Origin: a virus
UHGV virus genome: UHGV-1773670
DNA length: 13,657 nt
Reading direction: 5' to 3' (one strand)
In this document: positions 9,001-12,000 of the stretch, piece after piece
Position numbering within the stretch: the first letter of the stretch is position 1
Layout: each line of letters opens with the position of its first letter
Made by a program: the position numbers

Positions 9001-12000
9001 TCAGTAATTCTGTTTTCAAATTTTTCAGGGGAAAACTTTTCTTTAAGGTAATTCAGTGCGCAGGCCTCATTCTCTGGATTTTCAGCATTTTTCCCTATAG
9101 CAATAGAAATCTCAGATATCCTTGATTCAATTCTTTTACGTTTAATAAAACTAGAAAAAAAGAACCACGCAATCTGCAACCCTATCCCCAGAAATAGAGT
9201 TGCGGCAACTAGCACAGCGTAACTCATAGAATCAGACACACCAACCTCCTTAGTTTTGCGCAGGATACCATGAAAAAAGTTAACATTGGAAACGTACCAA
9301 AGATGCTCGTTCCGCTCTTTGAGAGCGGTACAATTGTGTTTTGTAGAGACTTTCCAGAATGGCAACGCCTGCATCAAAAACTTGGCGTTGACGTGCATGA
9401 CTCGGACGCCAACGGAGCGTCTCATACAATGAGTAGCGAGAATGGTGTTTTGCATGTGATAGGCGTGTTCAATGGCAAACTATCTACTATTGCCCATGAG
9501 TGCGCTCACATGGCATTCGATATCTGCTCAAGGGTAGGTGTTGATGTTGAACCAGGAAGAGCCAACGAGACTTACTGCTACTTAATGAGCAGGCTTGTTG
9601 AGTTCTGCGAGCGACATATCAAAAAGCCGGAGTGACCCGGCTTGATTATTACTTTTTGCTGTCTGGAGTTCGCTTATCCAATACCCAGCCATGACCTGGC
9701 TTTGTTGTTGGTGGAAGCCTTTCGTTGTCCTTGACGGTTGCAAAATTGTCTTTCTTACCGCCGCGTGGGCCAACTTCTTGGTATATTCCGCCGTTTTTTC
9801 CTGTGTTTTCACCTGGTTTTTTCGCCATGATATACCTCAACATACACCCGTTATTGGGCGATTAAATATTGATCTCATTTTATAAGTAGTCAATATGGCC
9901 CAGGTAAATGCAAAAATTAACCCACCTTCAGGTGGGTTTTTTGTACAAATCCTTCAGCGTATCAAACACCATCTTCTTAACAAGCTCTGACTGCTCATCA
10001 GCGATGCGTTCCGCATCGTCTCGATAGCCTGAAATTTTGGATGGCTTTGATACAGCATCAGTCACTATCTGAACTAATTCTGAATTAAGAGAGCGGCCAT
10101 TGGATTTGGCTCGCTGTTTTAGTTTTTCCTTTAATTCGTAAGGTAGCCGCAGATTAAATTGCGGGTCATCTCTTCCCATTCTTGATGCCTCGCTTTTGTG
10201 AGTGGATCGGCATCTTATTATCTGCTGGTTGCATCCTCAATAAGACCACAGTGGTCTCTTTGTTTGATTAATAATGCATCACTGTGGCAATGCTGCGGCG
10301 ATTCCTTGTATCTGGAGCAAATTAAATGACAGACATTACAGCCAATGTTGTAGTGAGTATGCCTTCGCAACTCTTCACTATGGCGCGTTCTTTTAAAGCC
10401 GTAGCCAATGGCAAAATTTATATCGGTAAAATTGACACTGACCCGGTAAATCCTGAAAACCAGATTCAGGTTTATGTAGAGAACGAAGACGGTTCTCACA
10501 TTCCTGTTTCGCAACCAATAATCATTAACGCTGCTGGATATCCGGTATATAACGGACAGATTGCCAAATTCGTTACCGTGCAAGGCCATTCTATGGCTGT
10601 TTATGATGCGTATGGTGCGCAGCAGTTCTATTTTCCTAATGTGCTGAAGTATGATCCTGATCAGTTACGGCAGCAATTAGAAGACCCAGATGGAGCGAAT
10701 AAATACCCAAAACTTCAGATAGCAAGATGGAGAGACAGTTATGATGTAAGAGGTTGGGGGGCTATTGGTGATGGTGTTCATGATGACACATCAGCTCTAT
10801 CAGAATTACTTTCTGTTGCAACAGGTGGTGAAAAGATAGATGGGCGAGGGCTTACTTTTAAAGTATCAACTCTTCCAGATGTCAGTCGATTTAAAAATGC
10901 TCGTTTTTTATTTGAGAGAATACCGGGTCAGCCTCTTTTTTATGCTTCTGAAGATTTTATCCAGGGAGAGTTATTTAAAATTACAGATACACCGTGGTAC
11001 AACGCCTGGACGCAGGATAAAACGTTTGTATATGACAATGTCATCTATGCGCCTTTTATGGCTGGAGACCGCCATGGTGTAAATAACCTCCATGTTGCAT
11101 GGGTTCGCTCAGGAGATGACGGGAAGACCTGGACAACGCCGGAATGGCTTACAGATTTACATGAAAACTATCCCACAGTTAACTATCACTGCATGAGTAT
11201 GGGGGTTGTCAGAAATCGCCTTTTTGCTGTAATTGAGACGCGGACCGTGAGCGGAAATAAACTGCAGGTTGCAGAGTTGTGGGATCGCCCAATGAGTCGC
11301 AGCCTTCGCGTTTATGGTGGTATAACGAAAGCAGCAAATCAGCAAGTCGCTTATATTCGCATTACTGATCACGGATTATTTGCTGGTGATTTTGTCAACT
11401 TCTCAAACTCTGGTGTTACAGGTGTTACCGGGAATATGACGGTGACTACTGTTATTGATAAAAATACTTTTACAGTTACGACGCAAAATACCCAGGATGT
11501 GGATCAGAATAACGAGGGTAGATACTGGAGTTTTGGTACATCATTTCACTCGTCACCATGGAGAAAAACCAGTCTTGGAACTATTCCTTCTTTTGTTGAC
11601 GGAAGCACTCCTGTTACTGAGATTCACAGTTTTGCGACGATTAGCGATAACAGTTTTGCTGTTGGCTACCATAATGGTGATATTGATCCACGCGAGCTTG
11701 GGATACTCTATTTCTCTGATGCTTTCGGTTCTCCTGGTAGCTTTGTTCGCAGACGCATACCTGTAGAATATGAGGCGAATGCATCTGAGCCATGTGTAAA
11801 ATATTATGATGGCATTCTGTATCTGACGACCAGGGGGACATTAAGTACTCAACCCGGTAGTTCATTGCACAGAAGCTCTGATTTAGGTACATCATGGAAT
11901 TCTCTTCGCTTCCCAAATAATGTTCATCACTCAAACCTTCCTTTTGCCAAAGTTGGCGATGAGCTGATTATTTTTGGCAGTGAGCGCGCATTTGGTGAGT

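Follow-up and report, generated by a model that had tools for sequence, protein, structure and literature searches.

HkcC of P22-like phages, a small conserved protein with a predicted zincin-like metallohydrolase site

The hkcC gene and its locus

The stretch of DNA considered here, referred to as the window, comprises 13,657 nucleotides of the virus genome UHGV-1773670, and the gene of interest within it is hkcC, a plus-strand coding sequence at 9270-9635 whose 121-amino-acid product is predicted to be a minimal zincin-like metallohydrolase. By megablast, Salmonella phage P22 and related phages match the segment from 8700 to 10060 at 96-97% identity across their gene 16 - sieA - orf59a - mnt region, and a prophage in E. 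coli EC931 matches the window at 100% identity; the window is a P22-like E. coli prophage. Its gene map was obtained by transfer of the curated P22 annotation (BK000583). Gene 16 ends at 8722 (plus strand) and is followed by the superinfection exclusion gene sieA on the minus strand (8745-9239), the divergent neighbour of hkcC, which lies outside the proposed hkcC-orf59a cassette discussed below. Next comes hkcC, recognized as an open reading frame (ORF) and by its identity with the hkcC gene of phage HK620, and it faces the convergent partner gene orf59a (59 amino acids, minus strand, 9649-9828). Beyond these lie mnt (minus strand, 9928-10179) and the gene for the 981-amino-acid tailspike (plus strand, 10326-13271).

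The hkcC ORF runs for 121 codons from an ATG at 9270 to a TGA stop at 9633-9635, and the HECAH sequence at residues 76-80 that first drew attention to it is indeed present. The translation signals had been judged weak in the original prediction, but a Shine-Dalgarno-like AGGA, read directly from the sequence, lies 4 nt 5' of the ATG (9262..9265, plus strand) and is an acceptable ribosome-binding site. Five of the six nucleotide differences between the window and P22 versions of hkcC are synonymous. Among eight orthologues of 46-78% identity, the proportion of synonymous differences (pS) is 0.70-0.97, that is, saturated, while the proportion of nonsynonymous differences (pN) is 0.13-0.44. Saturated synonymous sites combined with conserved amino acids show that hkcC is under purifying selection.

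The family to which hkcC belongs is large. The first homologue search recovered 32 proteins in which HECAH and N99-E100-T101 are invariant, and an exhaustive search with a profile yielded 546 clusters (at 50% identity) with E values of 1e-3 or less, 151 of them at 1e-10 or less; the family size is a lower bound, at least 546 clusters at 50% identity. Nearly all of these are stand-alone proteins of 110-130 amino acids. HkcC of HK620 is 99% identical to the window protein, and HkcC matches PHROG 1365, a phage family with no assigned function, over its full length (E 1.7e-39, residues 1-121 on profile positions 3-120 of 127). Where sieA gives way to another gene, hkcB in HK620 or a ClpP-like gene in locus L008 of the comparison set, hkcC stays in place, and it also occurs in siphovirus prophages. 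Taken together, these data show that hkcC is a genuine phage gene and is conserved. When the broad profile was used for a second, word-indexed search, no further homologues with an annotation or a Pfam match were gained, and a close-alignment search of viral contigs for related loci returned only P22-type loci of 99-100% identity.

Existing records treat this interval in several ways. The curated P22 records BK000583 and NC_002371.2 leave hkcC unannotated and place only a putative sieA promoter and the mnt/orf59a terminator there. P22 itself (locus L001, 3070-3435) holds an intact 121-codon hkcC frame that is 99% identical and unannotated; the earliest P22 sequence, AF217253, is a poorer match to hkcC (72%), perhaps owing to errors in that early record. 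The HK620 record names the same gene hkcC and calls it 'unknown', and PGAP gives it as WP_000757525.1, 'hypothetical protein', as in many P22-like genomes. Some records annotate a 236-amino-acid sieA that overlaps hkcC by 186 nt. This long frame was considered as the cause of hkcC conservation and rejected, because the curated annotation starts sieA at 9239 and hkcC persists in loci without sieA.

A conserved HExxH signature and its predicted fold

Residue conservation was counted across 124 family members with pairwise identities of at most 50%. G49, H76 and H80 are present in every one of them, and E77 and E100 are each present in 123. Conservation is also high at Y104 (119/124), G90 (112/124), L105 (111/124), C103 (101/124) and N99 (93/124). 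In the window, the HExxH codons H76-E77-C78-A79-H80 lie at 9495..9509 (plus strand), on a predicted helix that spans residues 71-88 (family alignment and AlphaFold2 model). The codons for N99-E100-T-Y-C-Y104 lie at 9564..9581 (plus strand), at the start of a helix predicted at 100-116, and include E100, the predicted third zinc ligand, as well as Y104. Several glutamates follow HExxH, as had been noted originally (E94, E100, E111, E114 and E121), and E100 alone is conserved. On this alignment the family signature reads HExxH-x19-(N)E-x3-Y. The original prediction had allowed that HExxH might occur by chance and had proposed conservation in relatives as a check; its invariance in 124 members of at most 50% mutual identity shows that it is not a chance motif.

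The spacing of these residues resembles that of thermolysin. By phmmer, residues 66-113 align ungapped with residues 132-179 of thermolysin, and an alignment of the same kind is found with B. cereus neutral protease. At the sequence level, thermolysin H142, E143, H146 and N165-E166 pair with H76, E77, H80 and N99-E100 of HkcC, so that E100 is placed 20 residues past H80 just as E166 is placed past H146. When the family profile was compared with PDB sequences, only zinc proteases were matched (myroilysin, BMP1/tolloid, peptidyl-Lys endopeptidase and thermolysin), and these matches are weak (E 0.02-1.6). The same kind of search with the close-clade profile A2 found nothing.

Four cysteines, C25, C78, C86 and C103, are invariant in the close clade whose members are linked to orf59a. 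In the wider family C25, C78 and C86 are replaced by Leu, Val or Ala, and only C103 is broadly conserved; the first three are probably buried positions rather than ligands. The four cysteines were rejected as the main metal site, given the hydrophobic residues that the wider family carries there, and a clade-specific second metal site or redox site formed by them is possible. Peptide deformylase, with its motif order G-x-G-x-A-A-x-Q, EGCLS, HExxH, was also considered and rejected, since the conserved cysteine (C103) lies after rather than before HExxH and there is no Pfam match.

The AlphaFold2 model, built on an 18-sequence alignment, has a mean predicted local distance difference test (pLDDT) score of 89 and a predicted template modelling (pTM) score of 0.83. 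It contains strands at 11-13 and 21-25, a helix at 28-37, strands at 49-56 and 59-66, the HExxH helix at 71-88 and a final helix at 100-116 that starts at E100, giving the topology b-b-a-b-b-a(HExxH)-a(E). A sheet, a backing helix, an active-site helix and a glutamate helix make up the minimal zincin plan, which is an established metallopeptidase architecture, and the modelled topology of HkcC fits this plan and can be called zincin-like.

Structural comparison by Foldseek with predicted viral structures (BFVD) gave 26 matches at E values below 1e-3. Nearly all are uncharacterized phage proteins, and a few are named SprT-like, metalloprotease or IrrE; two of the proteins named SprT-like match with TM scores of 0.72 (E 7.6e-5) and 0.56 (E 4.3e-4). 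The SprT connection recurs in a Pfam scan of 123 members, 31 of which have weak, below-threshold SprT-like matches (best E 1e-4), with no other family recurring. The one match to SprT-like (PF10263) that was inspected scores 12.1 bits against a cut-off of 25.6 and covers 17 residues around HExxH. At the position six residues past H80, the query has C86 and the family has Leu (72 members) or Cys (38 members), and His is never among the three commonest residues. Peptidase_M78 (PF06114) matches neither the query nor appears among the 25 most frequent families in the 123 members. The original prediction had proposed comparison with the ImmA/IrrE and SprT families, among others: the former is unmatched, and the latter gives no match in the query, sub-threshold matches in a minority of relatives, and no third histidine. 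We conclude that HkcC probably represents an unclassified, very small branch of the zincins. Its ligands are gluzincin-like and its overall similarity is greatest to SprT-like proteins, but it belongs to neither of these families.

C-terminal extensions are present in some relatives. The protein of phage mEp044 is 194 amino acids long (L005, 3501-4085), and extensions are also found in P0063, P0067, P0116, P0133 and P0150; in some relatives they form Lys/Glu-rich tails of 40-70 residues that resemble nucleic-acid-binding tails.

Late-operon context, regulatory features and the convergent orf59a gene

A promoter scan revealed no plus-strand promoter for hkcC, and the upstream regions of its orthologues have nothing in common but a Shine-Dalgarno-like motif of the AGG/GAGG/AAGG type. 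The gene has the same orientation as the late or structural genes among which it is tightly packed. In P22-type phages it lies between gene 16 and the tailspike gene; in L, ST64T and epsilon34 the family gene lies between Rz and dec/terminase; and in mEp044 it is found between the lysis genes and terminase, fused into a longer protein. In Rosenbergiella, Klebsiella, Xenorhabdus, Proteus and one metagenomic siphovirus it is located between the tail tube/chaperone genes and the tape measure gene, and in two metagenomic contigs it stands beside terminase and portal. The P22 interval from gene 16 to gene 9 is inside a late operon with a single promoter (PMC8022706). The lack of a promoter of its own and the sense orientation within a late operon lead us to infer that hkcC is expressed by late read-through, so that it would be made late in lytic growth and not in the lysogen.

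The paralogous Orf129-type members of the family, 38-42% identical (L004, 3641-4390; also L007, L096, L099 and L102), usually follow an orf118-like gene, an arrangement that points to another conserved pair. The genomes of phages ST160 and SE1 each match at two places, perhaps with a copy of either type.

In the closer clade of hkcC genes (at least 46% identity), a convergent 59-codon gene follows 13-40 nt after hkcC and is 64-80% identical to P22 orf59a. The pair is found in the window, P22, HK620, L009, L010/L011, L092, L093, L094 and L106; L010 and L011 represent the same Klebsiella context, so that there are six diverged loci with the pair beyond the P22/HK620 type. It is likewise present in 70 of 80 near-identical IMG/VR loci. 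Among sequenced phages, orf59a at 95% identity or more occurs in 52 records and P22-type hkcC occurs in the same number. The pair has been inserted in three contexts, namely the P22 interval from gene 16 to gene 9, siphovirus tail operons, and a Pasteurellaceae region between replication and terminase genes. No orf59a lies beside the hkcC-family gene in L008, L100, L101 or the whole Orf129-type branch.

The orf59a gene has its own expression signals. A sigma-70-type promoter, TTGACT-17-AATATT (9865..9893, minus strand), was found by the scan and is conserved in an alignment of seven diverged loci. The leader contains an inverted repeat, CGCCC-AATAAC-GGGTG on the minus strand (9845..9860), whose two arms change together across the seven loci and which is a candidate RNA stem or operator, and the gene carries a GGAG ribosome-binding site. 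A bidirectional terminator hairpin at 9624..9643, detected by the scan, is common to both genes, its stem covering the K-K-P-E codons and stop of hkcC; it is annotated as the mnt/orf59a terminator in P22 and HK620, and the hairpin is there in all seven loci examined. A second, strong bidirectional terminator-like hairpin lies between mnt and orf59a (9919-9938), which speaks for transcription of orf59a chiefly from its own promoter rather than from Pmnt, the source that the P22 annotation implies. With these signals orf59a is a unit complete in itself, and it is presumably expressed from the prophage. By the comparison as a whole, what moves between phages is an hkcC in late sense that has no promoter, accompanied by this autonomous orf59a. 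Orf59a itself matches Pfam YjzC below threshold (E 1.3e-3) and PHROG 3202, again with no assigned function, at 7e-31.

SieA, encoded on the other side of hkcC, is an inner-membrane protein (PMC10883804). Its annotated GTG start at 9239 is 30 bp from the hkcC ATG, the distance originally given for the divergent membrane-protein gene, or 42 bp if an ATG at 9227 is used. A leftward sieA promoter, termed 'putative PsieA' (PMC10883804), is placed by annotation transfer from BK000583 at 9270..9300 (minus strand), over the first 10 codons of hkcC; it was not picked up by a consensus promoter scan. In the P22-like contig L008, a gene for a 178-amino-acid ClpP-family protease and a 109-amino-acid gene occupy the sieA position (4964-5885, minus strand), divergent from hkcC, and a lipoprotein-like ORF stands in place of orf59a.

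On the mnt side, the genes arc and ant, which separate mnt from the tailspike gene in P22, are both absent from the window. Homology to P22 ends at about 10026-10059, inside mnt (window region 9928-10325). In the window Mnt the C-terminal half resembles that of P22 and the N-terminal, DNA-binding half differs, leaving an orphan Mnt with the 981-amino-acid tailspike gene directly after it. A related arrangement is found in a Proteus penneri prophage (L093, 4947-7837), in which hkcC, orf59a, a Mnt/Arc-like repressor gene (minus strand) and antirepressor-like genes (plus strand) lie together in a siphovirus tail operon, the repressor and antirepressor labels being read from N-terminal sequences only. 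This block mirrors the whole P22 immI layout, and the entire block may move as one piece.

The inverted repeat within the 5' part of hkcC had been presented as a notable feature, and its sequence is as described: two perfect 7-bp arms, CCGCTCT (9312-9318) and AGAGCGG (9322-9328), separated by the 3-nt loop ttg. It occupies codons 15-20 (PLFESG), within the V-P-L-F-E-S-G codons that form a conserved 'PLF/Y' motif. The potential to fold arises from the peptide codons, because the codons for Pro (CCN) and Gly (GGN) are complementary, as are those for Leu (CTN) and Ser (AGY). The pairing is weakened and partly kept in L008-L010 and is lost in L092, L093 and L094, where the energy is -4.5 to -0.3 kcal/mol vs -12.3 in the window. 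The window contains 12 perfect 7-bp stems with loops of 3-8 nt, compared to 4.3 +/- 2.3 in shuffled sequences, and several of the 12 are real terminators; one such stem is not unusual in the window, and this hairpin is not beyond chance. A role as a regulatory element was rejected, since the hairpin is a by-product of the PLFESG codons and disappears in diverged orthologues, and it is judged to be incidental.

Proposed function, alternatives and comparison with known systems

The product of hkcC is, on balance, likely to be a zinc metallohydrolase, probably a peptidase, made late in infection, with H76, H80 and E100 as the metal ligands and E77 as the catalytic base. Its most likely form would be a cytoplasmic, single-domain enzyme of about 14 kDa with a zincin (gluzincin-like) design. 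The metal would be held by H76 and H80 on the active-site helix and by E100 at the start of the next helix, with E77 serving as general base. The near-invariant Y104 is predicted to aid catalysis or to position a ligand, and the strand at 59-66, directly before the helix, would dock an extended substrate. The ligand and base assignments come from residue invariance and from the thermolysin alignment. As a working guess, HkcC might act late as a protease that removes a host or prophage-expressed protein, Orf59a being one candidate.

Several observations weigh against this interpretation. In database searches the thermolysin similarity falls short of significance (E 0.09-0.65). An hhalign comparison of the 123-member family profile with the thermolysin segment gave a probability of 76% (P = 2e-5, 46 columns), but this comparison was chosen after the phmmer hit had been seen and is therefore supportive, not decisive. 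No Pfam, NCBIfam or PADLOC family was found for HkcC, the only matches being spurious lantibiotic ones on the 'HEC' stretch. Foldseek against the PDB returned no significant match, to a solved zincin or to any other structure (best E 0.13): the top matches are GTPase or Rossmann-like alpha/beta proteins, which were treated as noise, and the best zincins are SPRTN (6mdx, probability 0.51, TM 0.30) and an M61 peptidase (7xyo, E 1.4). The late timing is read from gene orientation only, and the homologue in phCDa, an N4-like phage, is the first gene of a divergent cluster. Frameshifts occur in some copies of hkcC in E. coli prophages, so that the gene is dispensable in a resident prophage; a few such copies are as expected for decaying prophages. 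The minimal zinc-metallopeptidase site of the original prediction is strengthened by a conserved signature, thermolysin spacing and a zincin-like predicted topology, and it still lacks a significant match to any curated peptidase family.

One might suppose that the ORF is a chance reading frame over the sieA promoter and the orf59a terminator, since it is unannotated in the curated P22 records (BK000583 and NC_002371.2) and regulatory elements overlap both of its ends. This idea is refuted by hundreds of diverged, full-length homologues with invariant residues, and saturated synonymous sites with conserved amino acids, along with retention of the gene in contexts without sieA, leave it essentially no probability. 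A metal-binding protein that is not a protease, either a small regulator or inhibitor with a structural His-His-Glu site or a hydrolase acting on a non-peptide bond, is harder to set aside, and we regard it as unlikely. HkcC has no significant structural match to solved proteases, it is very small with no obvious substrate-binding lower subdomain, and C25, C78, C86 and C103, invariant in the closer clade, could form a second metal or redox site. However, E77 is as invariant as the ligands (123/124), a pattern expected for catalysis over metal binding alone; L, V or A takes the place of the extra cysteines elsewhere in the family, and all of the weak profile matches are to proteases. A SprT/SPRTN-like, DNA-associated protease that clears proteins stuck on phage DNA around packaging would suit the relatives found beside terminase or portal genes and the Lys-rich C-terminal tails of others, and the nearest named relatives are SprT-like, with SPRTN the best zincin match in the PDB. 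Nonetheless the family has Cys or Leu at position 86 in place of the third-ligand His of HExxHxxxxxH, the 121-amino-acid protein has no zinc ribbon or other DNA-binding domain, the Pfam overlap is just about 17 residues around HExxH, and the late-operon position may merely reflect permissive insertion sites, all of which make a SprT role very improbable.

The two remaining alternatives concern the biological target. The original prediction held that a small protease next to a repressor region could act on a repressor or immunity protein, in the manner of an ImmA/IrrE-type anti-repressor protease that cleaves Mnt, C2 or another immunity protein and so tips the lysis-lysogeny switch. HkcC does have HExxH and a downstream Glu, hkcC adjoins the immI region in P22-type phages, the pair in the Proteus prophage L093 adjoins Mnt-like and antirepressor-like genes, and there are weak BFVD matches to proteins named IrrE (E 0.03-0.05). 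Against these points, Peptidase_M78 is absent from the matches of the query and from the 25 commonest families among the 123 members, and the nearest repressor, Mnt, is a ribbon-helix-helix rather than an Xre-type protein and is encoded convergently, on the opposite strand beyond orf59a and in another transcription unit. HK620 keeps a 99% identical hkcC with mere remnants of mnt and ant, and in most of the family the neighbours are terminase, portal, lysis or tail genes and no repressor is close by (there is no adjacent repressor in L004, L005, L007, L009, L104, L105 or L106). An anti-repressor role is accordingly given very little credence. Alternatively, hkcC and orf59a could be a toxin/antidote or self-immunity device, in which prophage Orf59a inhibits leaky HkcC, or late HkcC destroys Orf59a function so that the lytic cycle can proceed. 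The two genes would then form a previously unrecognized mobile two-gene cassette, a YjzC-like 59-amino-acid protein paired with a late minimal zinc protease that destroys it or is restrained by it. The convergent genes stay paired, at the same spacing of 13-40 nt and with a terminator in common, down to 46% hkcC identity and in three insertion contexts; orf59a has its own conserved promoter and hkcC has none; and orf59a (at least 95% identity) is found in 52 phage records, the same number as P22-type hkcC. The linkage could instead be plain co-inheritance of neighbours that share a terminator. Moreover, the protease-like gene stands without orf59a in L008, L100, L101 and the entire orf129-type branch, YjzC-like proteins are encoded by Gram-positive phages, for which the phage collection gave no hkcC-family match, and there is no PADLOC match. 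Both the toxin/antidote or self-immunity mechanism and the cassette as so defined are quite doubtful.

P22 is among the most studied phages, yet hkcC is missing from its reference annotation and has been assigned no function anywhere. The literature on hkcC, orf59a, orf129 and phage SprT-like HExxH proteins yielded no functional study and no mention of a metalloprotease signature. If HkcC is an active protease, it would be a very small catalytic zincin scaffold of about 120 amino acids, and it would stand for a large family, specific to phages and without a Pfam model (at least 546 clusters at 50% identity), whose members are found in late or structural operons of many unrelated phages. This would suggest a widespread and unstudied proteolytic step late in infection. 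The tight pairing with the presumably prophage-expressed orf59a provides a concrete hypothesis that is genetically testable in P22, a phage for which knockouts of single genes and mutants of active sites are routine. If HkcC is not catalytic, it is an ordinary conserved accessory gene product.

The closest known proteins are Orf129 of ST64T/L and gp70 of epsilon34 (PHROG 1365), which are paralogue-level relatives with 38-40% identity and the same invariant residues; HK620 HkcC is the same protein as that of the window. Genes of the Orf129 type occupy the interval from the lysis genes to dec/terminase, in many cases behind an orf118-like gene, and are without orf59a. HkcC of HK620, Orf129 and gp70 are all annotated just as unknown or hypothetical. 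Among characterized systems, ImmA/IrrE (Peptidase_M78, COG2856) is similar in being a small HExxH protein with a downstream acidic ligand, borne by phages and other temperate elements. Unlike it, HkcC has no Xre-type repressor partner and no co-transcribed repressor, and its relatives are mostly in structural clusters.

The SprT-like/SPRTN/Wss1 proteins (PF10263) are the nearest named relatives, and phage SprT-like proteins share the predicted fold (TM 0.72, E 8e-5). Their third ligand is the final His of HExxHxxxxxH, whereas that predicted for HkcC is a Glu on the next helix; HkcC also lacks the SprT-like zinc-binding or DNA-binding subdomain, and the matches in its family are below the Pfam threshold and confined to the HExxH helix. 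The minigluzincins proabylysin and projannalysin, soluble zincins of about 100 amino acids, reportedly demonstrate that a catalytic zincin domain can be as small as about 100-120 amino acids. They were not among the phmmer/hmmsearch PDB matches or the best 50 Foldseek PDB matches of HkcC, and they are archaeal zymogens related to M48/M56, whereas hkcC is a phage gene.

The thermolysin-type gluzincins (MEROPS M4; thermolysin and B. cereus neutral protease) resemble HkcC in having xAHExxH, 19 residues and NE, ungapped and with the same spacing, and in having a beta-strand directly before the HExxH helix, which in HkcC is predicted. Thermolysin is much larger, about 316 amino acids vs 121, and HkcC has neither its large N-terminal sheet nor the C-terminal helical subdomain carrying H231 and Y157; HkcC has a Tyr where thermolysin has D170. 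The thermolysin-type enzymes are secreted and HkcC would be cytoplasmic, and database searches gave no significant sequence or fold match between them. Known as a hypothetical gene since the HK620 genome, hkcC is read here as encoding a compact form of a known kind of enzyme.

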